DNA of 64,000 nucleotides from an uncultured Gammaproteobacteria bacterium (GCA_964473565.1 CAYYPI010000001.1:57854-121853), one strand, 5' to 3'; shown: positions 7,847 to 50,186, counted from the first letter of the stretch. Notes: a model not told the origin generated them from the letters alone. Translations and numbers: made by a program.

Positions 7847-10543
7847 ATGAAGAGCTTAAAACAATTGTTAAAGATATATACACAAACAAAAAGGTTTTTA
7901 CAGGTAAAAAAACCTAAGTTTTTTGGTACTAAAAATATTTTTAAACTCAAAGCATTTAAACACAGTATAATTAAAAAGAACAAAAAAGCAGCAATTCTAG
8001 TTGTAGCAATGCTAATTATTGCCAGCAGTTCTATTTTTGTTTTTGATGTATTTTCTCAGCAGTCAGGCTCTAGAGTTTTAGATATGAGCTTAAGTGCAGA
8101 AAACTACGATGCTGTCACTAACACTTTTTATGATAGGAGTGGTAATGATAATCACAGTGACTATATTAATAATGTAAATTTTGTTGATGGGCGTTATGGT
8201 AGTATAGATGGAGCTATGAGTTTTGATGAAAATGCTAATAGTGGAACAGGAGAATATGTCGAAGTTGGTAATATTGAAAATTTTAGTAATGAAGAAATAA
8301 CCTCCATGGCCTGGATAAAACCAAATGCTTCAAGTGATGCAAGAGCGCCTATTACTAGAATAGATAGATTCTATCTTCAGCATTATAGCAATGACAGATT
8401 GGCCACTTATTGGTACGGGTGGAATAAACCAGGTTATCACACTTCCAGTGTTGATTCAGTGCCAGTAGGTGTTTGGACTCATGTTGCTGTTACTTGGGAT
8501 CAAGCAAATGGTGTAACTTTTTATATTAATGGAGAAAAAGATAATCAGATTTCAAATAGTGGAACAGGAGACGACATAGGTTGGATAAAGATAGGACAGG
8601 AAAATTCTAGCAGAAGGTATGATGGTTTGATTGAGGATATAAAAGTATATAACAGGTCTTTGAGTCAGGAGGAAATCCAAAATATATACAATTCATCACA
8701 ACCCATGGTCAGTGGCTCTAATTTAAATAAAGGTTTGGTGGGACACTGGAGTATGGATGAGGATGATTTTATAGAGGGAACTGAAAACTTAGCTCCTTAT
8801 ACAGATTATTCAGACAGAAATTATAATGAAGTTTATAATGCAAGTTGTTGGGGTGGTGATGGTGCAACAATTGAATATTTTGATTCTGGCGGTTATAACG
8901 ATATGCCATATAAAAAATTAATTAAAACAGATGCTGGCACAGGGGGGTGTTATCATAATAATAGTCAGTATTTTGATATAGAAAACAACACAACTTATAT
9001 TATAAGTGCTTATATTAAAGCAAACAGAAATCAAAGTTTTAATGGACATGTATTGAATATTAATAGACCAAGCGACAATCGCTATAAAACATCAAGTGGT
9101 TTTGATGTTACAACAGAATGGCAAAGATATTATTGGGTATATAATTCTTCTTCTGATGATGCTGGGACTTATCAAGCTAAACATATTATTTATATAGATG
9201 ATAATTTACCACTTGAGGTATATTGGTCAGGATTTCAAATAGAAGAGAAATCTGATATAACTCCTTATGTTAATGGTACTAGGGTTGGCACATTAACAGA
9301 GAAAACACCATATTCAAATCATGGAGATACTGGCATTGAACAATCTTTTTCTTTTAATGAAGATAGGTTTGGGAAAGAAGGTGGTGCTATGAGTTTTAAT
9401 GGAATTGATAATGTTGCTACTGCTGGTAATATTATTGATAATAATTTTGATGCTTATACAGTTTCTTTATGGGCCAAGCCAAACAACATAAGAACATCTG
9501 AACATGATATGCTTATTTCAGATGTAGGAGGCCATTGGTGGTATGTTTCTATAAATGGAACAAAATGGTTTTATAGAAATGATGAGACTGGAGATATATG
9601 GTCAAATGATAACGTTCAAGAAAATGAATGGTATCATATTGTTATTAATAATGATGGTTATGATGCTACTATGTATATTAATGGAGAACAACAGGGGACT
9701 GTAGGAAATGGCAGTGGCTTTGAGGACAGCGTGTTTAGTTTAGAAATAGGAAAATATTCTGCTAGCTATCCTTTATGGGATGGCCTTATAGATGATGTAA
9801 AAATATATAATAGAATTTTAAGTGAAGCAGAAATACAATCTTTATATGATTCATATGAGCCTAAAATAAGCGCAGGTAGTTTAAATAAAGGTTTAATCTT
9901 AGATATGCCTTTAACCTTAAAATATACAAAAGACGAAACATCTGGCTCTGAAATAATGACAGATAAAACACCTTATTCTAATGATGGACAGAATTATGGG
10001 GCGACAATAAGTGAAGAAGGTGCTGATTTTGATGGTGTTGATGATTATTTAAAAATTTCACATGACGCAAGTTTAAATACCCAAGAAGAAATCACAATTT
10101 CATCTTGGTTTTTAACAAGAACTAATTCGTCAGGACATATGAACATTATTGGAAAAAAATATTCTACGGCATGGGAGCTTAATATAGTTAATAATGACTT
10201 GTATTTTAATGTAAATATTGGGGGTAATTTTTATTCATATTTTTTAAGAAAAGATGATATAGTTACAGAAAATACATGGAATCACGCCCTTTTTACATAT
10301 AACAGTAATGATGGGGTTGCTAAATTATATTTTAATAATGTTTTAGTTGATTCAAGAAATGTAGCTGGCTTAATTGGTGTTAACACTCATGAGGTAGAAA
10401 TAGGTCATAGAGAGTCCTCATTGCTATGGAATGGAAAAATAAGTAATGTCCGTATATATAACCGCGCCCTTTCAGAAACAGAAGTAAAAAGTTTATATGA
10501 CAAAGGCAGATCAAGTAGTGGCATGATTATGCATGAAGAGTAA
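7847..10543 (+). CDS. large secreted protein with three concanavalin-A-like lectin/glucanase (LamG) domains
   Basis: 898 aa; N-terminal TM; thrice-repeated module ending in I(E/D/S)D(I/V)K(V/I)YNR(S/I/A)LS..E(I/V)(Q/K)..Y. Confidence 0.6.
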   Translation: MKSLKQLLKIYTQTKRFLQVKKPKFFGTKNIFKLKAFKHSIIKKNKKAAILVVAMLIIASSSIFVFDVFSQQSGSRVLDMSLSAENYDAVTNTFYDRSGNDNHSDYINNVNFVDGRYGSIDGAMSFDENANSGTGEYVEVGNIENFSNEEITSMAWIKPNASSDARAPITRIDRFYLQHYSNDRLATYWYGWNKPGYHTSSVDSVPVGVWTHVAVTWDQANGVTFYINGEKDNQISNSGTGDDIGWIKIGQENSSRRYDGLIEDIKVYNRSLSQEEIQNIYNSSQPMVSGSNLNKGLVGHWSMDEDDFIEGTENLAPYTDYSDRNYNEVYNASCWGGDGATIEYFDSGGYNDMPYKKLIKTDAGTGGCYHNNSQYFDIENNTTYIISAYIKANRNQSFNGHVLNINRPSDNRYKTSSGFDVTTEWQRYYWVYNSSSDDAGTYQAKHIIYIDDNLPLEVYWSGFQIEEKSDITPYVNGTRVGTLTEKTPYSNHGDTGIEQSFSFNEDRFGKEGGAMSFNGIDNVATAGNIIDNNFDAYTVSLWAKPNNIRTSEHDMLISDVGGHWWYVSINGTKWFYRNDETGDIWSNDNVQENEWYHIVINNDGYDATMYINGEQQGTVGNGSGFEDSVFSLEIGKYSASYPLWDGLIDDVKIYNRILSEAEIQSLYDSYEPKISAGSLNKGLILDMPLTLKYTKDETSGSEIMTDKTPYSNDGQNYGATISEEGADFDGVDDYLKISHDASLNTQEEITISSWFLTRTNSSGHMNIIGKKYSTAWELNIVNNDLYFNVNIGGNFYSYFLRKDDIVTENTWNHALFTYNSNDGVAKLYFNNVLVDSRNVAGLIGVNTHEVEIGHRESSLLWNGKISNVRIYNRALSETEVKSLYDKGRSSSGMIMHEE

Positions 10544-10607
10544 GACTTGGTGTTTGTGTTAAGCTAAGAATTTTTAGGTTTATTTTCAATGTATTACTTT
10601 ACTACTT

Positions 10608-10636
10608 TTGACAAAATCTCCTCCCTTTGTTATCAT
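10608..10636 (+). promoter_or_regulatory. sigma70-like promoter upstream of nusA
   Basis: TTGACA - 17 nt - TATCAT. Confidence 0.35.
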
Positions 10637-10725
10637 ATAATCAATATATAAAGCTAGTTGTTAATATAACAATTAGCTTTTTTAAATAATTAAAAAGATA
10701 ATAACTTAGATAATAAGTAAAAAAT

Positions 10726-12033
10726 ATGTCAGATCTATCAAGTGCCATACAACAGGTTTGTGATGAGAAAAACCTAGACTATGATATGGTGGTCTCAGCT
10801 ATTGAGATGTCTTTAGCTGCTGCCTATCGTAAAGATTATGGTGAAAAAAATCAAAACATTAAAGTAGAATTTGATCCTAAAACAGGAAAGTCTAAAATAT
10901 TTGATGTAAAAGAAGTTGTAGAGGATGTACCAGAAGAAGTTTTAGAAGAAATGAGACAAAGAGAAGAAGAGGCTAAAGAAAGAAGAGAAAGAAGAGCTCA
11001 AGGTAAGCCAGAGGAAAAGAAAGTTGAAGAAAAAAAACCTGAACTGAAAGAAGGTGAAGCTGAAGAAGAGGTAAGAAGGTTTAACCCTAGAACAGAAATA
11101 CAACTTAGTGAAGCTCAGATTTTAAAGTCTGGCGCTAAAGTAGGTGATGAAATAGTTACCGAGCTCCCTATCCCTGAAGAGTATGGCAGAATGGCTGCCC
11201 AAACTGCTAAGCAGGTAATCGTGCAAAAACTTAGAGAGATAGAAAGAGATATGATCTTCAATGAGTTTAAAGGTAAAGAAGGTGAGGTGGTTAGCGGTGT
11301 AGTGCAACGCAGAGAACCTAGGTTTGTGCTAGTTGATTTAGGAAAAGCTGCTGGTTATTTGTCTCATGATGAACAAATTCCACACGAACAATATAATTCA
11401 GGCGAAAGAATTAAAGTATATATTAAAGAAGTAAAGTTAGGACCTAAAGGGGCTGAGATAATTCTTTCTAGAAAATCAGAAGAGATTTTAAAGAAAGTCT
11501 TTTATCTTGAAATCCCTGAAATTTCTAATGGTTTAATTGAAATTAAAGGAGTAGCTAGAGAAGCTGGTTCTAGATCTAAGGTAGCGATATATACTGAAGC
11601 AGAAAATGTTGATCCAGTGGGTTCATGTGTAGGGCAACGTGGTGCTAGAATTCAGACAATTATTAATGAACTAGGAGGAGAAAAGGTAGATATTATTGAA
11701 TATGATGAAGATCCTAAGAAGTTTATCTCCAACTCTCTTTCACCTGCTCAAACAATAGAGATTGATTTAAATGAAGAAGAAAGAAAAGCAGTGGTAAAGG
11801 TAGCAGAGGATAAGTTGTCACTGGCTATTGGAAAAAATGGTCAAAATGTACGTTTAGCTGCTCATTTAACTGGTTGGAAAATTGATATTATTGCTGAAGG
11901 CGCTGAGATAAGTGAGGAAGCTGTAGAGGCATCAGCTACGCCTGAAGATGTAAAGAAGGATAAAGAGGACTTAGAAGAGGTAGTAGATGAAAAAGAAGAG
12001 ACTAAAGAAGAAGAGAAAAAGGAAGATAAATAA
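10726..12033 (+). CDS. nusA: transcription termination/antitermination factor NusA
   Basis: NusA N-terminal domain, S1 and two KH domains; charged insertion in NTD and K/E-rich C-terminal tail. Confidence 0.85.
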   Translation: MSDLSSAIQQVCDEKNLDYDMVVSAIEMSLAAAYRKDYGEKNQNIKVEFDPKTGKSKIFDVKEVVEDVPEEVLEEMRQREEEAKERRERRAQGKPEEKKVEEKKPELKEGEAEEEVRRFNPRTEIQLSEAQILKSGAKVGDEIVTELPIPEEYGRMAAQTAKQVIVQKLREIERDMIFNEFKGKEGEVVSGVVQRREPRFVLVDLGKAAGYLSHDEQIPHEQYNSGERIKVYIKEVKLGPKGAEIILSRKSEEILKKVFYLEIPEISNGLIEIKGVAREAGSRSKVAIYTEAENVDPVGSCVGQRGARIQTIINELGGEKVDIIEYDEDPKKFISNSLSPAQTIEIDLNEEERKAVVKVAEDKLSLAIGKNGQNVRLAAHLTGWKIDIIAEGAEISEEAVEASATPEDVKKDKEDLEEVVDEKEETKEEEKKEDK

Positions 12034-12121
12034 TCTAAATACTTAAAATAGATTAACAAGCTTTAAGCTTATTAAAGAAATTAAACTTAGATATTAAATA
12101 ATAAATTAATTAAGAAAAAGT

Positions 12122-14104
12122 ATGGAAAGCACTTATTTTATTATTGGTAGCGCAATTCTGGCATTAATATATGGAGTTGTTGCTATCAAATCAATTTTAA
12201 AATTACCTACTGGTAATGAGAAAATGCTTAGCATTGCTAAAGCTATTCAAGATGGAGCTAGAGCTTTTTTATCTAGACAATACAAAACTGTAGCAATGGT
12301 ATCAATCGTAGTATTTTTAATTATTGGTCCAACTTTAGGCTGGTTAACTGCTTGGGCTTTTCTAGCCGGTGCAGTTTTTTCAGGTTTAGCAGGATACATT
12401 GGTATGCATGTAAGTGTACGTGCTAATGTTAGAACTGCTGAAGCTTCTAGAACAGGCTTAAAACAAGGTTTAGCTGTAGCAGTTAAAGGTGGTAGTATTA
12501 CTGGAATGTTAGTGGTAGGTTTAGCCCTGCTTGGTACTGCCGGTTTTTACTTTTTAACTAAAGACTTAAGTGCTTTAATTGGTTTTAGTTTTGGTGGTTC
12601 TCTTATTTCTATCTTTGCCAGACTTGGTGGTGGAATTTATACAAAAGCAGCTGATGTAGGAGCTGACTTGGTAGGAAAGATTGAAGCTGATATTCCTGAA
12701 GATGACCCTAGAAACCCAGCTGTAATTGCTGATAATGTTGGTGATAATGTGGGTGACTGCGCTGGTATGGCAGCAGATCTTTTTGAAACATATGCTGTAA
12801 CTTCAATTGCTGCTATGATTTTAGGTTCTCTTACCTTTGTTGGTAATGAAAATGTTATTGTATACCCATTAGCTATTGGAGCAGTTTCAATTGTAGCTTC
12901 AATTATTGGTATTTTCTTTATTAAACTAGGAAAGAAACAAAACATTATGAAAGCTTTGTATAAAGGCTTAATTGCAGCAGGACTTCTTTCAGCTATTGGT
13001 TTCTATCCTCTAACACAATATTTCTTTGCAGATAATGCAGTGTATTCAGTAATGAATGTTTATTTAGCAGCACTAATTGGTTTGGTTGTTACAGCGCTAC
13101 TAGTAGTCATTACAGAATACTATACTTCAACTAAATATAGTCCAGTTAAAAGTATTGCCAAGGCTTCTGAAACAGGGCATGGTACTAATGTTATTGCTGG
13201 TTTAGCAGTGTCACTACAGTCAACACTCTGGCCTGTATTAGTAATTGTGGCAGCTATTATTGGTTCATACTCACTTCTTGGTTTATATGGTGTAGCTATT
13301 TCAGCTATTTCAATGCTATCTTTAACAGGTATTATTGTAGCTTTAGATTCATATGGTCCAATTACAGATAATGCCGGTGGTATTGCTGAGATGGCAGAGA
13401 TGGGTGAAGATGTGCGTGAAAAAACAGATGCTTTAGATGCTGTTGGTAATACTACTAAAGCGGTAACAAAAGGTTATGCTATTGGTAGTGCAGCCTTAGC
13501 AGCTTTAGTGTTGTTTGCTGACTATACTCACAGTATTGGTGATAATGTAGTCTTTTTAATTAACGATCCTTATGTACTTTCAGGACTATTTATTGGTGGT
13601 CTTCTGCCTTTCTATTTCGCTGCTCTAACTATGAAATCAGTGGGTAAGGCAGCTGGATCTGTGGTAACCGATGTAAGGAAACAATTTAGTGAAAAACCTG
13701 GCATTATGCAGGGCCTAGAAAAACCTAATTATGGTAGAACTGTTGACATTGTTACTAAGTCTGCTATTAAAGAGATGGTAATCCCCGCACTTATTCCAGT
13801 GCTTGCTCCAATAGTTGTAGGAGTAGTTCTAGGTGTTGAAGCTTTAGGAGGATTACTAGTTGGTTCAATTGTTACTGGTATTTTTGTAGCAATCTCTATG
13901 ACCTCAGGTGGTGGTGCTTGGGATAATGCTAAGAAATACATTGAAGATGGCCACTTTGGTGGCAAGGGTTCAGAAGCTCATAAAGCAGCTATAACTGGTG
14001 ATACAGTTGGTGATCCATATAAGGATACTGCTGGCCCAGCTATTAACCCAATGATTAAGATATTAAACATTGTAGCCCTACTGATCGTAGGTTTGCTACT
14101 GTAA
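12122..14104 (+). CDS. hppA: membrane-bound proton/sodium-translocating pyrophosphatase
   Basis: 660 aa polytopic; hallmark motif [18 protein letters not shown]. Confidence 0.9.
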
Positions 14105-14119
14105 TAATAACTATTTTTT

Positions 14120-15409
14120 ATGGAAACTAAGACACAAAAATTAGAAAAATCACAAGTTAAAATAACAGTTACCCTTCCTTGGGGTGATGTAGAAAAATAT
14201 CAAGAACAAGGAGCTCAAGAATTAGCTAAGAAGGTAAAGATTGAAGGTTTTAGACCTGGTAAGGTTCCTATGGATGTGTTAAAGCAGAAAGTAGGAGAAA
14301 TGGCTATTTTAGAAGAAGCTGCCTATATTGCTATTAACAAAACTATGGTGGAAGCAATTGAGAAGGCTCTACCTGAAGATCAGGCTATTGGTCAGCCAAA
14401 GGTTAATATTAATAAATTAACCACTGGCAGTGATTTAGAGTATCAAATTGAAATAGCTCTACTTCCAAAAACTGAAGTTAAAAAGTATAAAGATTTAGCT
14501 ATTGAAAAAGAAAAAGTTGAGATTAATGATAAAGAAATGGAAAGAACCTTGAAACAGCTAGCTGATATGAGAACGCAGGAAAAGATTGTTGAACGTGAAG
14601 TAAAAGACGGTGATAAAGTTTTAGCAGACATTGAAATGTTTCAAGATAATGTACCGGTTGAAGGAGGACAAAGCAAAGACGCCCCTATTATTATGGGTCA
14701 AGATGCTTTTATCCCTGGACTTGATAAAAAATTACTTGGAGCTAAAAAAGGTGAAAGCAGAGATTTTACCCTACCATTCCCTCCTAATCATCACCAAAAG
14801 AACTTAGCAGGTCAAAAAGTTGATTTTAAGGTAAAGATAAAGGATGTATATGAAAGACAGGTACCTGAAATTAATGATGAGTTTGCTCAAGGCTTTCAAT
14901 TTAAGAACCTTAAAGACTTAAAGGATAATTTGGGACAAAACATTAAGGCTGAGAAAGAGCAGAAAAATGAACAGAAAACAGAAATAAAGATTTTAGAGGA
15001 AATCATGAAAAATACAAACTTTGGTGATCTTCCTGATGTTTTAATTGAGAATGAAACTAAAAATATGATGGCTGAAATTAAGCAATCTGTTGAAAAACAA
15101 GGTGGGAAGTTTGAGGATTATTTGCAAAGCCTTGGTAAAAATGAAGAGCAAATTAAAGCAGATTTATTACCTGAAGCTACTAAAAGAATAAAGATTGCTT
15201 TGATTATTAAAGAAATTTCTAAGAAAGAAGATATTGAAGCTACTGAAAAAGAAGTAGCAGATAAGGTTGAAGAAATTAAAAAGCAGCATGCAGATAATAA
15301 AGAGGTGCAAGAGATGGTTAAAAGTGAAGAATATGCTAATTACGTTAAAAATCTTTTAACTAATCAGAAGGTAGTAGCTAAATTAAAAGAGTGGAATACT
15401 AAGAAATAA
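14120..15409 (+). CDS. tig: trigger factor
   Basis: 429 aa; N-terminal GFRPGKVP motif, FKBP-like middle domain. Confidence 0.8.
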   Translation: METKTQKLEKSQVKITVTLPWGDVEKYQEQGAQELAKKVKIEGFRPGKVPMDVLKQKVGEMAILEEAAYIAINKTMVEAIEKALPEDQAIGQPKVNINKLTTGSDLEYQIEIALLPKTEVKKYKDLAIEKEKVEINDKEMERTLKQLADMRTQEKIVEREVKDGDKVLADIEMFQDNVPVEGGQSKDAPIIMGQDAFIPGLDKKLLGAKKGESRDFTLPFPPNHHQKNLAGQKVDFKVKIKDVYERQVPEINDEFAQGFQFKNLKDLKDNLGQNIKAEKEQKNEQKTEIKILEEIMKNTNFGDLPDVLIENETKNMMAEIKQSVEKQGGKFEDYLQSLGKNEEQIKADLLPEATKRIKIALIIKEISKKEDIEATEKEVADKVEEIKKQHADNKEVQEMVKSEEYANYVKNLLTNQKVVAKLKEWNTKK

Positions 15410-15413
15410 TTAT

Positions 15414-15887
15414 ATGGGCACTTTGGCCTTTAATAGGCAAGCTAAAAGAGAGTATGAAATCTTAAAAACCTATGAAGCCGGGATGGTTTTAAAGGGTTAT
15501 GAGGTAAAGTCTGTTAAAAATGGCCAAATCAATTTAAAAGGTAGCTATATTGTTATTAAAAGAATAGAAGGTAAGAAAGATAAAGCTCTAGCTCCCTTTT
15601 TAGTTAAAGCTCACATACCTATATACAAGCCTGCCGGACAGAAAGATGAATATGACCCCTATAGAGATAGGCAATTACTATTAAATAGAGATGAAATTAA
15701 TCAGTTGATTGGTAAGTCGCAGGAGGCGGGCTTGACACTTATTCCCTTAAAAGTTTATACTAAGCATAACCTTTTAAAGTTAGAAATTGGCGTAGGTAGA
15801 GGAAAAAAGAAAGTAGATAAAAGGGAGGATATTAAAAAGAGAGATTTAGATAGAAGAATTAATGCTCTTAAAAAAAGAAGATTTTAA
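15414..15887 (+). CDS. smpB: SsrA-binding protein SmpB
   Basis: 157 aa; NRQAKREYEILKTYEAGMVLKGYEVKS N-terminal signature. Confidence 0.9.
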   Translation: MGTLAFNRQAKREYEILKTYEAGMVLKGYEVKSVKNGQINLKGSYIVIKRIEGKKDKALAPFLVKAHIPIYKPAGQKDEYDPYRDRQLLLNRDEINQLIGKSQEAGLTLIPLKVYTKHNLLKLEIGVGRGKKKVDKREDIKKRDLDRRINALKKRRF

Positions 15888-15893
15888 TATTTG

Positions 15894-16275
15894 GGGATGA
15901 CCGGCATCGATAGCAAGAGTCCCTTAAATATTCAGAGCGTGTCTGAGTGTACACGTAAATACCACTCAAAATTATAATTGCAAACAAACTTGCAAGCAAA
16001 GCTACTTTCGCATGGAAAGTTCCTAGCTTTGCACCTGTTGCTGCTTAAATAGCATGCAACCATCTGTCCAGCTAGCTCCGAGCTGGGTCACAGGTGTCAT
16101 CAGGAGCTCGACTTTAAGTTTTTGCTTTTAGGCTTAAGGTTTTAAACAAATAAAAGCTAGAAGTGCTTGGTTTCGTTTAGCTTAGACAAGTACTTTGAAA
16201 CCTTCAAGCTAAACTATCTCTGTAAAGTTATTTAAGAAGCCTTGTTAGACGCGGGTTCAATTCCCGCCATCTCCA
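15894..16275 (+). ncRNA. ssrA: tmRNA (SsrA)
   Basis: Starts GGGGATG, ends with tRNA-like T-arm GGTTCAATTCCCGCC and acceptor CATCTCCA pairing with 5' end; internal tag reading frame GCA AAC AAA ... GCT GCT TAA (…FAPVAA*); immediately downstream of smpB. Confidence 0.8.
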
Positions 16276-16342
16276 CATTTCTTAAAATCAAATTACTTAA
16301 AGTATTATATTATTTCCTTAAATAATATAATTTTTATATATA

Positions 16343-16426
16343 GCTGCGGTGGCGGAACTGGTAGACGCGTTGGACTTAAAATCCAATGGTAGCGATACCG
16401 TGGGAGTTCAAGTCTCCCCCGCAGCA
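16343..16426 (+). tRNA. tRNA-Leu (anticodon TAA), class II with long variable arm
   Basis: acceptor GCTGCGG/CCGCAGC, anticodon loop CTTAAAA, long variable arm, T-loop TTCAAGT. Confidence 0.8.
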
Positions 16427-16808
16427 CTAAAAAAACTGTGTTTGTCACAGTTTTTTTGTTTATACCCTTTACAAAACAAAAAAAATAAGCTAATATAATT
16501 TTAAGATCTTTAAACTATTACATAAAAAATATTATATACTTTTTAAAGTGATAATTACTAATTATATTTCATTTCTATTTATAGATCTGAAGCTAGTTTT
16601 TAAATTGAATTGTTAATTTGATTGATTGATTGTATTCGTTAAAAACTATCATTTGTTTTCATGGTTTACTAAATTGTGTTGTCTTTGTTCATTTACTTTT
16701 TAAAGTTGTATGGGGTTAGCTATTATAGTTAACCCCTTTTTTTCTTTTCTTGACTAAAGATTCCAGATTATATACAATATATTTGCTTTGAAAGAAGTTT
16801 TTTTATTT

Positions 16809-16880
16809 GCGGGTATCGTATAATGGCTATTACATTACCTTGCCAAGGTAGAGATACGGGTTCGATTCCCGTTACCCGCT
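16809..16880 (+). tRNA. tRNA-Gly (anticodon GCC), U73 discriminator
   Basis: acceptor GCGGGTA/TACCCGC, anticodon loop TTGCCAA, T-arm ACGGGTTCGATTCCCGT. Confidence 0.85.
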
Positions 16881-16900
16881 CACTGAATTATCGCAAGAAG

Positions 16901-16926
16901 CAGAGTTTAAAAGCTCTGTTTTTTTG
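16901..16926 (+). terminator. rho-independent terminator after tRNA-Gly
   Basis: cagagtttaaaagctctg hairpin followed by T7. Confidence 0.4.
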
Positions 16927-17127
16927 TTTTTTATGTTTATAACAAACTAAAATATTTTAATTAAAAGCAATAAATACAACCATAGTAAAAAAGAGGTTAT
17001 AAAAGTTAAAGCTAATATTTGAGGTTAACTCTATAATATAGCAATCTAAGAGAAAAAAATTTGTGAATTTGGATTTATTTTAAAGAAATTTTAAAGAAAA
17101 TTGTGTTAACTTATGTTAAAATTTGAA

Positions 17128-17156
17128 TTGACTCTAAGGCAGTAAAAGAGTAAAAT
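17128..17156 (+). promoter_or_regulatory. sigma70-like promoter of the R-M/AIPR operon
   Basis: TTGACT - 17 nt - TAAAAT, about 30 nt upstream of the methyltransferase ATG; a related sequence recurs upstream of the RhuM gene (22319-22362). Confidence 0.4.
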
Positions 17157-17187
17157 TAAATTAATAAAGTAATTTATAGAAATTATT

Positions 17188-18006
17188 ATGAAACCATATT
17201 TTAAAGATAAAAACTTTTCATTATATTTAGCTGACTCAACTAAATTTTTAAATGAAAATATAAAAGAAAATTCAGTTGACATGATATTTGCTGATCCGCC
17301 ATACTTCTTGTCTAATGGCGGATTTTCTGTTCACGCTGGAAAAAGAGTAAGTGTAGATAAAGGACAGTGGGATATAAGCAATGGATTAAAAAAAGACTTT
17401 GAATTTCATATAGAATGGATTAAACAATGTCATAGAGTTTTAAAACCAGGAGGAACTATTTGGATTTCTGGAACATATCACTCTATTTATCAGTGTGGCT
17501 TTGCTTTACAGGTTAATAAGTTTCATATTTTAAACGATATTGCTTGGTTTAAGCCTAATGCTTCACCTAATTTAAGTTGTCGTTTTTTTACTGCTAGTCA
17601 TGAAACACTTATTTGGGCTAGAAAAGAATTAAGTCATCCTAAAACTGGAAAAGCAGTAAAACAAAAACATAAGTTTAATTACGATTTAATGAAAAACGGT
17701 CATTGGCCAGAAGATTTTATTAAAAAACCAGGACTACAAATGAGAAGTGTTTGGTCCATGGGAACACCTAAACCAATAGAGAAAAAGCATGGCAAACACC
17801 CCACTCAAAAACCAATTGATCTTTTGGTTAGAATAATTATGGCTAGCACTGACAAAGGTGATACTGTTTTAGATCCTTTTACAGGTTCTTCAACAACGGG
17901 ATTAGCTTCTTATTTGAATGGCAGAAAGTTTATTGGTGTTGATTTGGAAAAGAAATACTTGGATTTATCTGTTAAAAGATTAAAAGATATTAAAAACAGT
18001 AAATAA
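17188..18006 (+). CDS. beta-class N6-adenine DNA methyltransferase, DpnA (M2.DpnII)-like, probable GATC specificity
   Basis: motif IV DPPY (MIFADPPYFLSNGG) preceding motif I (LDPFTGSSTTG); extensive similarity by recall to S. pneumoniae DpnA (VSVDKGxWD, PNLSCRxFT, GKHPTQKP, RFIGID). Confidence 0.85.
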   Translation: MKPYFKDKNFSLYLADSTKFLNENIKENSVDMIFADPPYFLSNGGFSVHAGKRVSVDKGQWDISNGLKKDFEFHIEWIKQCHRVLKPGGTIWISGTYHSIYQCGFALQVNKFHILNDIAWFKPNASPNLSCRFFTASHETLIWARKELSHPKTGKAVKQKHKFNYDLMKNGHWPEDFIKKPGLQMRSVWSMGTPKPIEKKHGKHPTQKPIDLLVRIIMASTDKGDTVLDPFTGSSTTGLASYLNGRKFIGVDLEKKYLDLSVKRLKDIKNSK

Positions 18007-18007
18007 T

Positions 18008-18925
18008 ATGAAATTTTTAGATTTTTATAAAAACAAGTTAAATTGCAAAACAGAAGATGAGGTTTTTAATTATTTAATTTCAAATTTACAAACATCAATC
18101 TCAGATTGGAGTTTTTTTGTTGACTGGGAAAAAGTTAAAAATCATATTTCTAATATTGAGACAGAATTAAATATATTAAATTCAGTTTTAGGTAAAAGCG
18201 ATTTAGATAATAAGTTTATTCAGATTATAAAAGAATATCCAAAAACTAAAAAGGCTTTATTAATTTTAATTGCAGTTAGGCACGAAAAATTAAAAGAAAG
18301 ACCAATATTAAATTTTAACGATGGCTTGAATGTTGAAGTTAAAGATTATATTTTTGATATAAAAAAAGAATTAACTCCAAAAATACAAAAGGAGTTATTA
18401 AGATTTTTTCACGAGAGTGGATTAAAAAGGATTTTTTATGATAAAAATATTAAAAATTTAGTTGATTATTGTTTTGGAGTTGAAGTTGGTATGGATACTA
18501 ATGCTAGAAAAAATAGGGGTGGTCATAATATGGAAGACATAGTCGAAGACTTTATTAAGAATATTTGTAAGAAAAATAATTATAAATATTTGAAAGAAGC
18601 AACTTCTGAAAAAATTAAAAAGGAATGGGGTTATGATGTTCCAGTTGATAAATCATCTAGAAGATACGATTTTGTAGTAGATAACGGAAAAGAGTTGTTT
18701 ATATTTGAAACTAATTTTTATGGTGGTGGTGGCTCTAAACTCAAATCAACTGCTGGTGAATATAGAAATTTATTTGATGTTTTGAAAGGAAAATATAAAT
18801 TTATTTGGATAACTGACGGATTAGGCTGGAAAACGACTGCTAAGCCGTTAAGAGAGACTTTTAATCATAATGATTATTTGTTTAATTTATCTATGTTAGA
18901 AAATAATATTTTAAATTTTTTATAA
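18008..18925 (+). CDS. type II restriction endonuclease, DpnII/MboI family (GATC)
   Basis: 305 aa; motifs VDYxxGVEVGMDTNxRKNR, NFYGGGGSKLKSTAGEY, FIWITDGxGW, LRETF, LENNIL recalled from R.DpnII; 2-nt gap to methyltransferase. Confidence 0.7.
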   Translation: MKFLDFYKNKLNCKTEDEVFNYLISNLQTSISDWSFFVDWEKVKNHISNIETELNILNSVLGKSDLDNKFIQIIKEYPKTKKALLILIAVRHEKLKERPILNFNDGLNVEVKDYIFDIKKELTPKIQKELLRFFHESGLKRIFYDKNIKNLVDYCFGVEVGMDTNARKNRGGHNMEDIVEDFIKNICKKNNYKYLKEATSEKIKKEWGYDVPVDKSSRRYDFVVDNGKELFIFETNFYGGGGSKLKSTAGEYRNLFDVLKGKYKFIWITDGLGWKTTAKPLRETFNHNDYLFNLSMLENNILNFL

Positions 18926-18928
18926 ATT

Positions 18929-20647
18929 ATGACTAGAATAGATCAATCCTCTAATCAAGATTACCATTTAGTCAAAATTAAAACTCAAGAAACAGTAAAT
19001 AAGTTAGGGAGTGTTTATGGATTCTCCGAAAATTCTATTGGCTTTGAATTTTTAGTACTTTCAAAAATATTTAAAAGGCAAGAAGATGAAATTATAGAAG
19101 ATATTACAGATTCTGTTTTTTTGAATAAATTATATAATCAGGATAGTGGCCCAGATAGAGGCATAGACGCTTTAATAATTGATAATGAAAAAAATATAAT
19201 TCATTTATTTAATTTTAAGTATACAGAAATTATTTTTAATAGAGTAAAAGAAAAAAATTTTCCTGGAAATGAAGTAAATGAGATAACTGTTTTCTTGAAG
19301 AATTTATATGAGAAAGAAGAGTCTTCTTTTTCGGGCAACTCGGCTAATAATAGATTAGAAGAAAAAGTAAAAGAAATTTGGAAAAAGCAAGAGGAAGGGG
19401 TAATCTTTACAATTGAAATCCATTTTGTCGCCAATTTGTTTAAAGGGTTAGCCGACCAAGAAGAACAAAGGCTTGTTTCTGAATTAAAAAATTACAGAAG
19501 CGATGTTTCTTTTAATTATATTTTAACTAGAGATATTGTAGACATTTTAATTAGCAGATCAGAAAAAATAGATTGCAAATTTAAAGCATTATCAAAAAAT
19601 TTTTTTGATAAAACAGAAGGCGGTAATAGAGCTTTAATACTAGAAATGTCAGCTTTAGACTTATTAAAAATTACAACTAATAATTTAGGATTAAGAAATA
19701 AAATTGATTTTGAAGATGAAGAAATAACTAATTCAAGTATAGAGGAAAATATTTTTGGTGATAATGTTAGAGTGTATTTAAAACAAAGAACAAATATTAA
19801 CAGGAATATTAAAGAAACGGTTCTTAATGATGAAGAAAAACCAAATATATTTTTTTATAATAATGGCATTACTATAACCTGCGATCACATAAAATATCAA
19901 GGACAAAGAAATCAAACTATTACATTAGAAAACTTTCAAATTGTTAATGGCGGCCAAACAGTGCATGCTTTGAGAGCAGCTTTTGAAGAAAATAGTGATA
20001 ATTTTGAAGAAATAACAATTTTGTGTAAAATTTATGAAACAGATAATCCTAATTTTAAAAGTAAAATAGCAGAATATACTAATAGTCAAAACCCAGTAAA
20101 AGATCGTGATATAAGGTCAATAGATCTTGTGCAAATCAAATTAGAAGAAGAGTTTAGGGATCTGGGATATTTTTACGAAAGAAAAAAAAGTCAATACGAG
20201 AATGAGAATAGAGATAAAAAAATAGATTCAGAAAAATTAGGACAATCTCTTTTGGCGTTCAACATAGAAATGCCGGCAGAGGCAAAAGATAAAAAAAGAA
20301 TAATATTTAGTGACAAATATGACGAAATTTTTAACGATACTTTATTAGCAAAAGACGCTTTAATTGTATTTAATCTTTATAAAGAAATTGAAATAAAAAA
20401 AATAAAAAATAAAAAGGAAAAACCCTATTTAATGCATGCAACATATTATATTATGTTTTTTATTAAAAGATTATATCAAGCAAAAAAGAAAAAACCATCT
20501 AATTTAATTGATCTATATGATGAGGCTATAGAAAAAATTGAAATAATTATAAAAAAAGAAAAAGAAAGGCTGGGAGAGGATTATCTAGATGCTGTCTTGT
20601 TTAAATCAAATAGACCTAAAGATTATTTAACAGAATTAAGTATGTAA
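18929..20647 (+). CDS. AIPR-family abortive-infection protein (N-terminal PD-(D/E)xK-like region + AIPR C-terminal domain)
   Basis: 572 aa; conserved IVNGGQTVHAL and FFYNNGITITCD motifs reminiscent of AIPR (PF10592); 3-nt gap to the endonuclease gene. Confidence 0.55.
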   Translation: MTRIDQSSNQDYHLVKIKTQETVNKLGSVYGFSENSIGFEFLVLSKIFKRQEDEIIEDITDSVFLNKLYNQDSGPDRGIDALIIDNEKNIIHLFNFKYTEIIFNRVKEKNFPGNEVNEITVFLKNLYEKEESSFSGNSANNRLEEKVKEIWKKQEEGVIFTIEIHFVANLFKGLADQEEQRLVSELKNYRSDVSFNYILTRDIVDILISRSEKIDCKFKALSKNFFDKTEGGNRALILEMSALDLLKITTNNLGLRNKIDFEDEEITNSSIEENIFGDNVRVYLKQRTNINRNIKETVLNDEEKPNIFFYNNGITITCDHIKYQGQRNQTITLENFQIVNGGQTVHALRAAFEENSDNFEEITILCKIYETDNPNFKSKIAEYTNSQNPVKDRDIRSIDLVQIKLEEEFRDLGYFYERKKSQYENENRDKKIDSEKLGQSLLAFNIEMPAEAKDKKRIIFSDKYDEIFNDTLLAKDALIVFNLYKEIEIKKIKNKKEKPYLMHATYYIMFFIKRLYQAKKKKPSNLIDLYDEAIEKIEIIIKKEKERLGEDYLDAVLFKSNRPKDYLTELSM

Positions 20648-20825: not shown

Positions 20826-20847
20826 TTCGATTCCCGTTACCCGCTCA
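20826..20847 (+). repeat. 22-nt exact direct repeat of tRNA-Gly 3' end (att-like)
   Basis: ttcgattcccgttacccgctca identical to 16861-16882. Confidence 0.8.
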
Positions 20848-20857
20848 AAGATACAAA

Positions 20858-20884
20858 AACAACCTCGAGAAAGGTTGTTTTTGT
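20858..20884 (+). terminator. rho-independent terminator
   Basis: aacaacctcgagaaaggttgtt hairpin + T5. Confidence 0.45.
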
Positions 20885-21004: not shown

Positions 21005-22135
21005 ATGAATATTGAAATTTGTAAAAAAATCAAACAACCTGAAGGTTTTGAGGCATCCGTGCCTAACGATTTTCCTGTCAAAGGCCTGTTTGACATTTCT
21101 CAAGAATTGATAAATAAAGCAGGAGAGGCGGAGAGGTTAGTAGGAAAACTGGATGGCATAACTCAAATATTGCCAGATGTTCAGTTTTTTTTGAAAATGT
21201 TTTCATTAAAAGACGCTACCTCTTCAGCTCAAATTGAAGGAACTCAGGCAACTATTGTAGATGCTGTTGAGATGGACGCTGGAATTGATGGAAAAGAAAG
21301 CGATGCGCAAGATATTATTTTCTACATCAAGGCTCTTGAATATGGTATTGAAAGAATAAAAGAGTTTCCTTTATCATTAAGATTTATACGTGAACTACAC
21401 TCTAAATTAATGAAAGGTGCTCGTTCAACTCATTTTTCTGATCCTGGAGAATTTCGTAATTCACAAAATTGGATAGGGGGAACATCTCCCGCGAACGCTG
21501 CTTTCGTTCCACCGCCTGTTCATGAAATGAAAAGAGCTCTAAATGATTTAGAAAAGTTTATGTATGATCAAAAGTCAACATTACCTATTATTCATATAGC
21601 ATTTTTGCATGCTCAATTTGAAACAATCCATCCGTTTCTAGATGGTAATGGACGAGCAGGCAGGCTGTTGATTACTTTAGCTTTGTATAAAATGAAATTA
21701 TTAGAGAACCCTGTACTGTTTTTGTCTTCTTATTTTAAGCAACATCAAAAAGTATACTATTCTAAACTCAACAACTATCATTCAGGTGAGGTGTTTGAAT
21801 GGTTAGAATTCTTTTTAGATGGGGTTATTGATACAGCAAATAAATCAATTTCTATAGCAAAAAAAATTAAAGATATTTATAAGAATGATATGTTAAAGAT
21901 ACAGGCTCTTGCAAAAAGAGAGTCTGAAAGTGGAGCTTTAGTTTTATCTAAATTATATGGTAATCCAATTATAACAACTAAAATTATAATGGACTGGACA
22001 GGGTTTACACGTTCAGGGGCTCAAAAAGTGATAAACAGATTTGTAAAAATTGGAATATTGGAAATACGTGACGAAGAAGGAACTTATGATAAAAAGTATT
22101 CTTATAAAAAATATTTAGAAGTCTTTATTAATTAA
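21005..22135 (+). CDS. Fic-family protein (AMPylase-type), class II with N-terminal inhibitory motif
   Basis: Fic motif HPFLDGNGRAGR; upstream SxxxEG inhibitory helix motif (TSSAQIEGTQ). Confidence 0.85.
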   Translation: MNIEICKKIKQPEGFEASVPNDFPVKGLFDISQELINKAGEAERLVGKLDGITQILPDVQFFLKMFSLKDATSSAQIEGTQATIVDAVEMDAGIDGKESDAQDIIFYIKALEYGIERIKEFPLSLRFIRELHSKLMKGARSTHFSDPGEFRNSQNWIGGTSPANAAFVPPPVHEMKRALNDLEKFMYDQKSTLPIIHIAFLHAQFETIHPFLDGNGRAGRLLITLALYKMKLLENPVLFLSSYFKQHQKVYYSKLNNYHSGEVFEWLEFFLDGVIDTANKSISIAKKIKDIYKNDMLKIQALAKRESESGALVLSKLYGNPIITTKIIMDWTGFTRSGAQKVINRFVKIGILEIRDEEGTYDKKYSYKKYLEVFIN

Positions 22136-22206
22136 AAGAATATTCTTAACCACTTTCAATAACTTAACCCTAAGACAGATTTGACTAAGTTCCAGTTTGG
22201 AGCTCA

Positions 22207-22256
22207 CTAAATTATTGAAATAGCAGAATTTAAAAGCTCTGTTTTTTTTGCTATTT
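22207..22256 (+). repeat. imperfect copy of the sequence flanking tRNA-Gly (att-like)
   Basis: gctcactaaattattgaaatagcagaatttaaaagctctgtttttttt vs 16874-16926 gctcactgaattatcgcaagaagcagagtttaaaagctctgttttttt. Confidence 0.6.
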
Positions 22257-22385
22257 TTTTAAAACATTACTAAATTAATCATTATAATTATTAATAAAAA
22301 ATTAAGTAAATATTTGTTAAAGTTAAATTAACTCTAATTAATCTAAAGAGTAAAATTAAAACATGAAAGAAAAGAAAATAAAAAA

Positions 22386-22853
22386 TTAGCAATTTATCAA
22401 GCAGAAAATGGTGCAACAATTGAACTTTCTGTTGATTATAAAAAGGATACTATTTGGGCAAGTATAAATGAAATTGCCCTTCTTTTTGAAATTAATAAAT
22501 CAAATGTTTCTAGACATGTGAAAAATATTTTTTCTGAAGAAGAGGTTGTAAAAGATGCAACTGTTGCAAAAAACGCAACAGTTCGAAGGAAAGAAGGAGG
22601 CAGAGAAGTAGAAAGACAAATAGATTGTTATAGTTTAGATATAATTATAGCTATAGGATATAGAGCTAGATCAACAAAAAGGGCTACAGAGTTTCGTAAG
22701 TGGGCAACTAAAATTTTAAAAGAGCATATTACTCAAGGCTATACCATTAATGAAAATATTTTAAAGAAAAAGCAAGATTTATATCTAAAAGCTTTGGAAG
22801 ATATAAAATTATTATCTAAAAATAATAAAAACCTAAAACAAGTGATGTTTTAG
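22386..22853 (+). CDS. RhuM-family (virulence/defense-island) protein; N-terminus lacks canonical start, possible frameshift
   Basis: ATVAKNATVRRKEGGREVERQIDCYSLDIIIAIGYRARSTKRATEFRKWATKILKEHITQGYTINE matches RhuM core; conserved N-terminal region (LAIYQAENGATIELSVDYKKDTIW…) is in frame upstream of the GTG used by the ORF track but the only ATG (22363) is in another frame across a poly-A run. Confidence 0.65.
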   Translation, partial: LAIYQAENGATIELSVDYKKDTIWASINEIALLFEINKSNVSRHVKNIFSEEEVVKDATVAKNATVRRKEGGREVERQIDCYSLDIIIAIGYRARSTKRATEFRKWATKILKEHITQGYTINENILKKKQDLYLKALEDIKLLSKNNKNLKQVMF

Positions 22854-45962: not shown

Positions 45963-46682
45963 GTTTCTTAAAATTTAAAGTTTAACTCCTGCCTCTCTTT
46001 TATAAAGATAGGTGGAATTTAAATTTTAAATGTACTTTGACATTTGAATAATAGAACCAATTAATTAAGTAAAAATAAAGTTTTTTCGTTCAAGATAAGA
46101 GCGTGGGAAAATCTCAACAAGAGTATACGGTGGATGCCTCGACATAAAAAGACGATGAAGGACGTAGCAGCCTGCGAAAAGCTTCGGTAAGGTGGCAAGC
46201 AACCTTTGACCCGAAGATTTCCGAATGGGGAAACCCGCCCTATTGAAGATAGGGCATGCCTTGAGTCAAATCAAGGCAGGAAGACCCGGTGAATTGAAAC
46301 ATCTTAGTAGCCGGAGGAAAAGAAAACAAACGTTTATTCCCTTAGTAGTGGCGAGCGAAAGGGGAAAAGCCTAAACTTTATAGACTGAGTTTAATGGATT
46401 TATCTACTTCGGTAGATAATGAAGTTAAACGGAAGGATTTGGGTCCACATGTTTATAGAGGGTTGTAAGAAAATTGTGTTTATCTCCCAAACAGATAAGG
46501 CAAAGTTACAAAAAACTATTTTTAACTAAATGAGCTGGAAAGCTCAGCCAGAGAAGGTGATAGCCCTGTAAGTGAAAAGAATAGTTTCTTTGCTGCAATT
46601 TTTCTTAAGTAGTGCGGAACACGTGAAATTCCGTATGAATCTGGGTCGACTATGATCCAAGGCTAAATACTTTTTATGATCA

Positions 46683-46717
<35 letters not shown>

Positions 46718-47895
46718 CATCCCGGTAAGGGAGGTGAAATAGTACCTGAAACCATATACTTACAAGGAGTCGGAGCCCATTTATGGGTGACGGCGTGCCT
46801 ATTGAAGAATGAGCCAACGAGTTTGTTCTATGTGGCTACATAAGTCCTAACAGGAAATATGTACAGTGAAAGCGAGGGTTAACTGCCCGTATATTTCACT
46901 TCCATTTAACGCCAATGTTAGTGTTAAGTGGAAGTGAAATCAGAGTCGCATGGACAAGACCCGAAGCCGGGTGATCTAGCCATGGCCAGGTTGAACTTTA
47001 GCGAAAGCTAAAGGGAGGACCGAACACACTAGTCGTGCAACACTAGGTGATGAGCTGTGGTTAGCGGTGAAATTCCAATCGAACTCGGCGATAGCTGGTT
47101 CTCCTCGAAATAGCTTTTGGGCTAGCCTCGGATGTTGACTACTGGAGGTAGAGCACTGAATGAGGGCGGGTCTTCGGATACCGTCTTTAACCAAACTCCG
47201 AATGCCAGTAGGTATAATCCGGGAGTTAGACTATGGGGGCTAAGCTCCATCAGTCGAAAGGGAAACAGCCCTAACCGCAATCTAAGGTCCCTAAATATAT
47301 GCTAAGTGTCAAAGGTGGTGTTGTGACTACGACAGTTAGGAGGTTGGCTTAGAAGCAGCCATCCTTTAAAGAAAGCGTAACAGCTCACTAACTAAGTTGT
47401 TTCGCGCCGAAAATTTATCGGGGCTAAAGCATATTACCGAAGCTGCGGATTCTAGAACTATGTTCTAGAGTGGTAGAGGAGCGTTCTGTTTAGCGTTGAA
47501 GTTGTGTCGTGAGGCACAGTGGAGCAGACAGAAGCGAGAATGTTGGCATGAGTAGCAAAAAGGCAGGTTAAAACCCTGCCCACCGAAAACCTAAGGTTTC
47601 CTGGGCAACGCAAATCGTCCCAGGGTTAGTCGGTCCTAAGGTCATGCCTGTGTAGTGCAGGCGCAGCCGATGGAAGAGCTGGTTAATATTCCAGCACTAC
47701 TGTTGTTTTCCGATGGGGGGACACGGTTTCAAAGTTCAAGCGCATTTAATGGTATGTGCGTTGCTTGCCTCAAGAAGCGATCTAGGCAAATCCGGATCAA
47801 TAGCTTTAAGAGGTCGGCAAGAGGTGAAGCCTTTGGTGGAACTGATTTGAGCATAGGAGCTGTCAAGAAAAACCTCTAGGGTTAATTCAACAGTA

Positions 47896-47927
<32 letters not shown>

Positions 47928-48189
47928 CGAGAAGCCTCAGGTGTACGAGAGAACCTTCGTTAAGGAACTCGGCAAAATAGCGGCCGTAATTTCGAGATAA
48001 GGCCTGCCCTGAGCAATCGGGGCCGCAGCTAAAGAGCTCGAGTGACTGTTTAGCAAAAACACAGCTCCCTGCTAACTCGAAAGAGGATGTATAGGGGGTG
48101 ACGCCTGGCCAGTGTCCGAACGTTAAGAGGAAGGGTTAGCTTTGGCAAAGCCCTGAATTCAAGCGCGGATGAACGCCGGCGATAACTAT

Positions 48190-48955
48190 GAAATGATTGT
48201 AGTTATAAAATTTGGCTATTTGCGGGAATATCCTGTTAAGTTAAGAGTACTAGTCTTTTAAAAGGCAGTAAAAATCTCTTAAATAACCCTAAGCAATTTA
48301 GGTACGGGACAATCCGCAGGAAAGACTCTAATAAAAAATTATATGACAGACAGTAAATGGCTTAAACAAGTAGATCCTGCTAAAGGTTATTACCTAGCTG
48401 GATTTGCTGACGGAGAAGGAAGCTTTAATGTCTCTTTAAGAAAGAGGGATGACCATACTATGGGTTGGCAAGTGGTACTTACATTTAATGTATCTCAAAG
48501 AGAGAGCCACATATTAGCCCAGTACAAAAGAATTTTAGGTTGTGGTCGCATACAAGAAAGATCAGATGGTCTTCACATGTATGTGGTTAGCAATCCTAAT
48601 GCGATTGTAGAAAAGGTCATACCTTTCTTTAAGCGCTTTAACTTCTTATCTCAAAGAAAAAAGCAAAATTTTTCTATCTTCTGCAAAATAACAGAATTAG
48701 TTTATTCTAAAGCTCATCTAAATAAAGATGGTTTAGAAGAAATTGTTAAATTGCGTGAAAAGTTAAATGAAGGAAAAGGTAGAAAAAGAAAATATAATCA
48801 AGAAGATGTTACTAAACATCTTAAAGAGAATCCTCAGAGACTACATGCCAAACAAAGACCTTTTCGTAATGAGAAGGCCTAGATGATATAGTCCGATCTC
48901 TATAGAGATATAGAGTGTTAATAAAGGTTGGCTTTATTAACTGTTAACATAAATG
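48190..48955 (+). mobile_element. group I intron 1 in 23S (after …AACTAT)
   Basis: exon sequence resumes at aatcgtcctaaggt; carries HEG ORF. Confidence 0.6.
48343..48882 (+). CDS. LAGLIDADG homing endonuclease (single-motif)
   Basis: LAGFADGEGSF motif; inside 23S intron. Confidence 0.8.
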   Translation: MTDSKWLKQVDPAKGYYLAGFADGEGSFNVSLRKRDDHTMGWQVVLTFNVSQRESHILAQYKRILGCGRIQERSDGLHMYVVSNPNAIVEKVIPFFKRFNFLSQRKKQNFSIFCKITELVYSKAHLNKDGLEEIVKLREKLNEGKGRKRKYNQEDVTKHLKENPQRLHAKQRPFRNEKA

Positions 48956-48969
48956 AATCGTCCTAAGGT

Positions 48970-49698
48970 TCTGCAGTTTAGAAGATCTAGACTGTGGAAG
49001 GCTAGGACGGTTCGTAAAATTCGCTGCCTAGCTATATGAAAATATAGTTGCCATAAAACACTCAGTAAAATGCGTGGAAATCTTCAAAAGATATTAAGTA
49101 CTAGACTGTTTGTAAAAATAGTCAGTAAAAATCTTAATATACAGGGAGGCAATACGCAGGATTATTATTTAATAATCCTCAGAGACTTAACACTGAGGTC
49201 TTAATTATATGATCATAAACAAAGATTGGGTATCAGGATTTGTTGATGGTGAAGGAACTTTTTATGTAGGGATTAATTATAATTCCACTATGACTAATAA
49301 AATACAGATTTTACCTGAATTTAGAATAGTTCAACATGAAAAGGATATAAAATTACTTTATGCTTTAAAAGATTTTTTTAAAGCAGGTGTTGTTAGAGTT
49401 AATCATGACAATAGGTATGAATTACGAGTCAGAAGACTACAACATTTATCAAGTATAATTATTCCTCACTTTCAAAAACATCCGTTAATAACTCAAAAAC
49501 AGTTTGATTTCATTAAATTTACTAAAATAGTAGAGTTAATGATAAAACAAAAACATTTAAACAAGGAAGAAATAATCAAAATTATTGATATTTCCTGTAA
49601 GATGAATAGACAGAATAAAGAAAAAGCCTTGAAAATAAAAGAAATGTTGTTAAGACAAGATAAAGTCCATACTTAATAGAAATATTAAGAGGGTATAG
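48970..49698 (+). mobile_element. group I intron 2 in 23S (site equivalent to E. coli ~1931, before AGCGAAATTCC)
   Basis: exon resumes agcgaaattccttgtcggg. Confidence 0.6.
49209..49676 (+). CDS. LAGLIDADG homing endonuclease (single-motif)
   Basis: VSGFVDGEGTFYV motif. Confidence 0.8.
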   Translation: MIINKDWVSGFVDGEGTFYVGINYNSTMTNKIQILPEFRIVQHEKDIKLLYALKDFFKAGVVRVNHDNRYELRVRRLQHLSSIIIPHFQKHPLITQKQFDFIKFTKIVELMIKQKHLNKEEIIKIIDISCKMNRQNKEKALKIKEMLLRQDKVHT

Positions 49699-50186
49699 AG
49701 CGAAATTCCTTGTCGGGTAAGTTCCGACGTGCACGAATGGCGCAACAACTTGAGCACTGTCTCAACGAAGGACTCGGCGAAATTGCATGACGAGTAAAGA
49801 TGCTCGTTAATCATAGTCGGACGAAAAGACCCCATGAAGCTTTACTACAACTTGATATTGAGTTAGGGGTACGCATGTTCAGTAATAGGTGGGAGACTCA
49901 CGTCACCAATGAGAGACCACCCTTGCGTGCTCTTAGCTCTGACTTGCTTAATTGCGAGGACAGTGTCTGGTGGGTAGTTTGTCTGGGGCGGATGCCTCAT
50001 AAAAAGTAACTGAGGCGTTTACAAAGGTTGGCTATCCCGGAATGGAAACCCGGGAGATAGCGTAAAGGCACAAGCCAGCTTTACTGCGAGACTTACTAGT
50101 CGAGCAGTTGCGAAAGCAGAACTTAGTGATCCGACCGTTCGATATAGGACGGCGGAAGCTCATCGGATAAAAGCTACTCTGGGGAT

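Follow-up and report, generated by a model that had tools for sequence, protein, structure and literature searches.

The window analysed here, a stretch of 64,000 nucleotides (nt) deposited under an uncultured Gammaproteobacteria bacterium (GCA_964473565.1, CAYYPI010000001.1:57854-121853), contains a two-gene restriction-modification (R-M) module that consists of a DpnA-like beta-class methylase (M) and a DpnII-family endonuclease (R). Based on the results given below, we suggest that this pair is a functional Type II R-M system with GATC as its predicted target, located on a tRNA-Gly island, with the DpnA-type M as its sole protector; the probability of this reading is estimated at about 0.8. 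According to the proposed mechanism, M would produce G6mATC (GATC with N6-methylated adenine) on the chromosome as the only protecting enzyme, and R, a putative PD-(D/E)xK nuclease, would cut incoming DNA with unmethylated GATC. M, R and an adjoining abortive-infection gene of the AIPR/AbiU type would probably form a single compact operon within a small integrase-less island at the tRNA-Gly gene.

The methylase-endonuclease pair

The two genes are + strand open reading frames (ORFs) with exactly the coordinates of the preliminary description (Table 1). They encode proteins of 272 (M) and 305 (R) amino acids (aa), and 1 nt separates the stop codon of M from the start of R. M matched Pfam N6_N4_Mtase (E 1.9e-55, residues 30-262 covered) and, over its full length, the PADLOC profile for Type II methyltransferases, MTase_II (E 6.4e-90). 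R matched Pfam DpnII (PF04556) with E 6.1e-91 and 305 bits against a cutoff of 23, its residues 20-303 being aligned to nearly the full length of the model (positions 2-277 of 278), as well as the PADLOC profile for Type II endonucleases, REase_II (E 8.7e-90). All of these matches are far above chance level. Annotated reference systems were found by tblastn of R against the PLSDB plasmids, and one of them was pSRQ700 from Lactococcus lactis, the plasmid of LlaDCHI. This Type II system has been characterised and is a relative of DpnII from pneumococcus (PMC6458302, which cites Moineau 1995). M shares 51% identity with the second, DpnA-type methylase of this system (LlaDCHI-B; E 2e-89, 254 bits), and R shares 36% identity with its endonuclease, R.LlaDCHI (E 1e-62). 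Together with the Pfam matches, these values bear out the preliminary assignment of the pair to a DpnA-like beta-class methylase and an R.DpnII-like endonuclease. GATC specificity is predicted from homology and from the linkage of the two genes.

The order of motifs in M is that of the beta class, with motif IV (FADPPY, residues 34-39; DPPY at 36-39) located N-terminal to motif I (LDPFTGSSTTG, residues 228-238). M scored 406 bits against a hidden Markov model (HMM) built from 41 beta methylases linked to DpnII-family genes, and its scores with other beta-class enzymes were lower (CcrM, 165 bits; H. pylori 5hek, 95 bits; MboIIA, 65 bits). Judged by these sequence scores, M is nearer to DpnA-type, DpnII-linked enzymes than to GANTC or other beta-class enzymes.

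The residues of R were checked in a 12-sequence cross-phylum alignment, which included R.LlaDCHI and spanned Lactococcus, Staphylococcus, Levilactobacillus, Streptococcus, Psychrobacter and members of the Candidate Phyla Radiation (CPR), and in a 35-sequence alignment of closer relatives. R keeps all invariant columns (D153, D163, N165, R167, K168, R170, D221, E234, N236, G242-S243-K244 and D270); inactivating substitutions, which the preliminary description had considered decisive against the assignment, were seen in neither alignment. A sequence search of R against the PDB gave no meaningful match and revealed no DpnII-family structure there. The AlphaFold2 model of R (mean predicted local distance difference test score of 79) has an alpha/beta core, in which D221 and E234-x-N236 are placed on adjacent beta strands and K244 opens the next helix. 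A Foldseek search of the PDB with this model returned, with weak scores, PD-(D/E)xK nucleases only (BstEII, BsoBI, PspGI, MspJI, Hjc and NucS/EndoMS), so that the predicted C-terminal core of R may resemble nucleases of this type.

The preliminary description had also proposed counting GATC sites for signs of avoidance. The window contains 125 of them against 134 +/- 10.6 expected, i.e., there is no depletion. It follows that the genome does not escape restriction by site avoidance and that, if R is active, protection must come from methylation.

Probable sole protection by a DpnA-type methylase

When five reference alpha methylases were used as tblastn queries, no Dam/DpnM-like methylase was found in the 64 kb window, and an HMM built from 50 alpha methylases gave a best E value of 0.35 against all six-frame ORFs of the window. 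Within these 64 kb, the lack of a DpnM-like gene, noticed in the preliminary description, is thus confirmed. A second beta-class methylase was likewise not found in the window, and the 263 nt between the tRNA-Gly terminator and the start of M contain no + strand ORF of at least 50 aa.

To place this layout among its relatives, DpnII-family loci were sought in one genome per GTDB species, using an alignment of diverse members of this endonuclease family. At least 598 were confirmed; the best 80 of them were then classed by tblastn with alpha and beta references. Architectures were counted for the 46 loci in which R is full length and flanked by 2 kb or more on each side: 19 were alpha-only, 14 alpha+beta, 12 beta-only and 1 had neither methylase, proportions that reflect a sample biased to relatives of the query and are not those of a census. 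Among loci with an R that shares 55% identity or more with that of the window, most are beta-only and carry M directly 5' of R in the same orientation (L006-L010, L012, L013, L015-L017 and L032). Locus L011 (alpha+beta) is the clear exception in this group, and the others are too short or incomplete to class. Nitrospirota (L022, L024) and Actinomycetota (L042 and L047, in divergent orientation) have beta-only loci as well, and further ones were found in a Lutispora metagenome-assembled genome (MAG; L035, with a short downstream flank), in Saccharibacteria (L084) and in an archaeal MAG (L016). According to Pfam neighbourhoods, the near relatives L088, L091 and L093 (R identity of 69-80%) have N6_N4_Mtase and DpnII genes and no D12 methylase. 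On a rough neighbour-joining tree of R, used qualitatively because the placement of the window is not trusted, the three architectures are intermixed, which indicates that the methylase complement was gained and lost repeatedly. An indel distinguishing solo from cassette beta methylases was sought, and none was found: a GxWPEDxxKKP insertion is present in both, and an LSHPKTGKAV insertion is specific to the sub-lineage of the window and L015.

The beta-only layout is therefore common rather than unusual. The opposite opinion of the preliminary description does not agree with the 12 of 46 loci, with L088, L091 and L093 or with the dpnM deletion of S. mutans considered below. Since beta-only modules are found in many unrelated contexts, we argue that the pair is self-sufficient. 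DpnA is said to have been active on both single- and double-stranded DNA in the 1989 work of Cerritelli et al. The dpnM-dpnA-dpnB cassette is one of three common DpnII-family layouts and the DpnA-type methylase is frequently alone, which argues against a purely accessory, single-strand role for it.

Several points weigh against a self-sufficient GATC system. The predicted specificity is drawn from homology at 36-51% identity to characterised enzymes, and the Foldseek matches of R are weak (E 1.8e-4 to 1e-1, TM scores of 0.2-0.36). Furthermore, only 64 kb is visible, and an orphan Dam-like methylase could sit elsewhere in the genome. In the pneumococcal literature, finally, methylation of single strands is ascribed to DpnA and that of duplex DNA to DpnM (PMC3573125, PMC3812788).

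The last two points favour the alternative in which a Dam/DpnM-like methylase encoded elsewhere in the larger genome maintains GATC methylation and M is accessory, serving, for example, incoming single-stranded DNA. We consider this unlikely. No alpha-class methylase is present in the window, and the beta-only pair is transferred as a unit complete in itself into many unrelated contexts and phyla; such transfer would kill the recipient if the pair could not protect DNA on its own. In addition, single deletion of dpnM or dpnA in S. mutans leaves genomic GATC methylated; methylation is lost only when both methylases are gone, both genes being active (PMC11904264).

Less likely still is that the system has decayed, with R inactive and M effectively an orphan, or that its site is not GATC, having drifted, for example, to GANTC. 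The top match of M among solved structures is indeed CcrM (6pbd, E 1.9e-47), a GANTC enzyme, and its top NCBIfam match is the CcrM equivalog; a neighbouring gene of the island, the frameshifted RhuM-family fragment described in the next section, is decaying; and the lack of GATC avoidance is also compatible with an inactive R. However, the NCBIfam score of 204 bits is far under the cutoff of 830, and M scores far higher against the DpnII-linked beta methylases than against CcrM. Moreover, R is full length with all of its invariant residues kept, and M and R are tightly linked over many lineages.

A more far-reaching idea, which we regard as doubtful, is that Patescibacteria streamlined the DpnII-type system to one methylase possibly acting on both single- and double-stranded DNA. 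If the idea is true, the solo M maintains chromosomal G6mATC and pre-methylates DNA taken up as single strands, and the cell restricts double-stranded DNA phages and spares DNA imported by natural competence. Reduced-genome CPR organisms may depend on DNA uptake; if they do, this would explain the predominance of beta-only modules among the CPR-type loci nearest to the R of the window. In a tighter variant of the streamlining idea, the AIPR gene abutting R would be a functionally coupled abortive-infection back-up.

The tRNA-Gly island and its surroundings

The R-M pair lies just 3' of smpB and the genes for transfer-messenger RNA, tRNA-Leu and tRNA-Gly. The features of the region are listed in Table 1.

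Table 1. Features of the R-M module and the tRNA-Gly island (positions in the window)
Feature	Position	Strand	Basis or remark
tRNA-Gly(GCC), anchor of the variable region	16809-16881	+	ARAGORN, Rfam
Terminator-like hairpin native to the tRNA-Gly locus	16895-16924	+	Terminator scan; common to L087 and L099
Candidate sigma-70-like promoter, TTGACT-17-TAAAAT	17128-17156	+	32 nt 5' of M; consensus scan, 10/12 matches
M, beta-class N6-adenine DNA methyltransferase, DpnA / M2.DpnII type	17188-18006	+	Predicted target G6mATC
R, DpnII-family Type II restriction endonuclease	18008-18925	+	Predicted cutter of unmethylated GATC
AIPR/AbiU-type abortive-infection gene	18929-20647	+	Pfam AIPR 2.7e-50; PADLOC AbiU 5.3e-49
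Right repeat, attachment-site-like; 22 nt identical to the 3' end of tRNA-Gly	20826-20847	+	After the AIPR gene
SoFic-type Fic protein, defence-type, full length	21005-22135	+	Pfam Fic and Fic_N; PADLOC SoFic 9.9e-103
Degenerate (~79%) copy of the tRNA-Gly end and terminator	22202-22277	+	Repeat family D1; alignment; self-blastn against 16878-16954

Collinearity of the window with a sister strain (L099, NusA 90% identical) extends over 9259-16924 at 78-88% nt identity, after which L099 carries unrelated cargo. Blastn homology with sister strains stops at window positions 16923-16924, just past the terminator hairpin. Another sequence, L087, is a single 1.4 kb contig from the metagenome scan with a full tRNA-Gly gene, too short to show where synteny resumes; its tRNA-Gly and terminator are identical to those of the window, and the sequence that follows is unlike both the window and L099. 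The M-R-AIPR block is bracketed by tRNA-Gly and a copy of its 3' end: the 22 nt at 16861-16882 are repeated exactly (repeat family D3, 100% identity) after the AIPR gene, where a hairpin at 20853-20884, detected as an inverted self-blastn match, trails the right repeat. The degenerate copy farther downstream marks a second, older junction, and the position of the SoFic gene between the exact and degenerate copies suggests that this tRNA-Gly site received insertions twice in succession. Over most of the 17-26 kb region the G+C content is 24-29%, with 33% at 21-22 kb, versus ~30-38% in the preceding 10 kb. The ORFs between 16.9 and 25.9 kb revealed no integrase or recombinase domain, and an SmpB look-up for an empty site gave only a 5.5 kb contig ending ahead of the tRNA.

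Thus, the region is an integrase-less defence islet whose content varies among strains, located at a tRNA hotspot. Horizontal acquisition, deduced in the preliminary description from the CPR-like nature of the host, is well supported, although not for that reason; the support comes from the synteny break in L099, the different sequence in L087 and the 22-nt repeat. Several further beta-only modules are likewise found next to tRNA genes (L010, L032, L016), and the M-R module of L088 adjoins a serine recombinase as part of a serine-recombinase element. The donors were most likely other Patescibacteria, because homologs in this group reach 87% identity for M (P0001) and 80% for R (metagenome proteins P0122 and P0123; relatives of R in the genome survey are 56-62% identical). 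As the closest homologs of both proteins come from Patescibacteria, the gene pool is CPR-internal and not pneumococcal.

The AIPR gene starts 3 nt after R and is probably co-transcribed with the pair. We examined it as a conserved partner of the R-M genes and rejected it in this role, a homolog being detectable at only 1 of the 80 surveyed DpnII loci; it is better described as interchangeable, co-resident defence cargo than as a conserved third component. An obligate three-component defence system, with abortive infection coupled to restriction, would fit the gaps of just 1 and 3 nt among the three genes, the position of a 70%-identical AIPR in L072, where a D12 methylase and a DpnII-family R enclose it, and the distant AIPR preceding the M-R pair in L093, but it is very improbable given this single homolog, the absence of AIPR beside the nearest R relatives L088 and L091, and the occurrence of GmrSD in the same position of other cassettes (L064, L027), which suggests interchangeable cargo.

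Some of these cassettes deserve a separate description. In the cassettes of L072 (2317-6595), L064 (2217-6619) and L027 (2470-5870), the D12 methylase and R enclose another defence gene, AIPR in L072 and GmrSD in the other two, the genes being nearly or directly contiguous, and a second, divergent N6_N4 methylase is located 3' of R in L072 and L064. These cassettes look like composite M-X-R operons.

The candidate promoter ahead of M is weak evidence, as sigma-70-like sites are no commoner than in shuffles of this AT-rich region. The ~75 nt 5' of the M start (17087-17160) are 75% similar to the ~75 nt 5' of a RhuM-family fragment (22286-22360), and a AAGAGTAAAATTAAA motif precedes the start codon in both segments. 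This likeness may represent a duplicated promoter/leader or a recombination scar. The RhuM-family fragment itself (22365-22853; PADLOC PDC-S05/S23) is cut down to about one third of the family length, and its reading frame is apparently shifted in a run of A close to the start; it represents a defence-candidate gene in decay at the island's edge. At the tRNA-Gly site of L099, a 153-aa ORF, a MazG-like gene and a SLFN-g3-type helicase (8975-11502) may be a different defence cargo.

The host is assigned to the CPR (Patescibacteria): the best named relatives of NusA are from Pacebacteria, Patescibacteria, Falkowbacteria and Parcubacteria. The 23S rRNA gene (46111-50222) is 4112 nt long versus the 2925-nt model and contains two ORFs for LAGLIDADG homing endonucleases (48343-48882 and 49209-49676), which are probably intron insertions. 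Such insertions are reported for rRNA genes of CPR bacteria. An 898-aa protein with three Laminin_G_3 (concanavalin-like lectin) repeats, encoded at 7847-10543, may serve CPR cells at their surface or in attachment; similar genes adjoin the R-M module in L091 and also occur in sister strains. In L100-L105 (NusA 94% identical), two transposase-type genes, with an rve domain and an ISL3 DDE domain, are found between the Laminin_G_3 gene and nusA; none was noticed in the same interval of the window, where no check aimed at them was made.

Comparison with known systems

The module is one more predicted GATC R-M system in a very large family with thousands of close homologs. For the transformation of CPR bacteria it represents a predicted G6mATC-dependent barrier, and if this prediction holds, DNA from Dam+ E. 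coli should be protected.

The dpnM-dpnA-dpnB cassettes of LlaDCHI and DpnII (S. pneumoniae, S. mutans) include the same endonuclease family and beta methylase subfamily as the window and the same arrangement, with the beta methylase directly 5' of R, on the same strand, in near-overlapping genes. The difference is in the Dam-like alpha methylase, DpnM or its equivalent LlaDCHI-A, which was not found in the window. The location also differs, the module of the window lying on a CPR tRNA-Gly island and the known cassettes on a plasmid or at the dpn locus, and competence (cin-box) regulation is not known for the former.

The MboI/DpnII-type systems grouped here as alpha-only, for example those of Psychrobacter pYP14d and S. 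thermophilus pSt08 and, provisionally, Pin25611FII of Prevotella intermedia, combine a single methylase with a DpnII/MboI-family endonuclease, as in the window. M.Pin25611FII alone confers G6mATC protection (PMC5608340). A literature search found this single-methylase MboI-type system, but no experimentally characterised beta-only system of the DpnII type. The single methylase of the window is of the beta class, in contrast to the annotated DNA adenine methylases (alpha reference) of pYP14d and pSt08.

With the GANTC beta-class enzymes CcrM and M.HinfI, M shares the fold and the motif order. However, M does not have the C-terminal domain of CcrM (272 aa versus 366 aa in the 6pbd chain), and, unlike CcrM and M.HinfI, it is paired with an R of the DpnII family and stands nearer to DpnA-type enzymes.

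An architecture identical to that of the window is seen in the two-gene loci of Patescibacteria and other phyla that combine a beta methylase with a DpnII-family endonuclease (examples among L006-L016, and L032, L084, L088, L091, L093, L022, L024, L042 and L047). What distinguishes these loci is the flanking cargo: AIPR in the window, and T5orf172, AAA_13, DUF4238 or a serine recombinase at the other beta-only loci.

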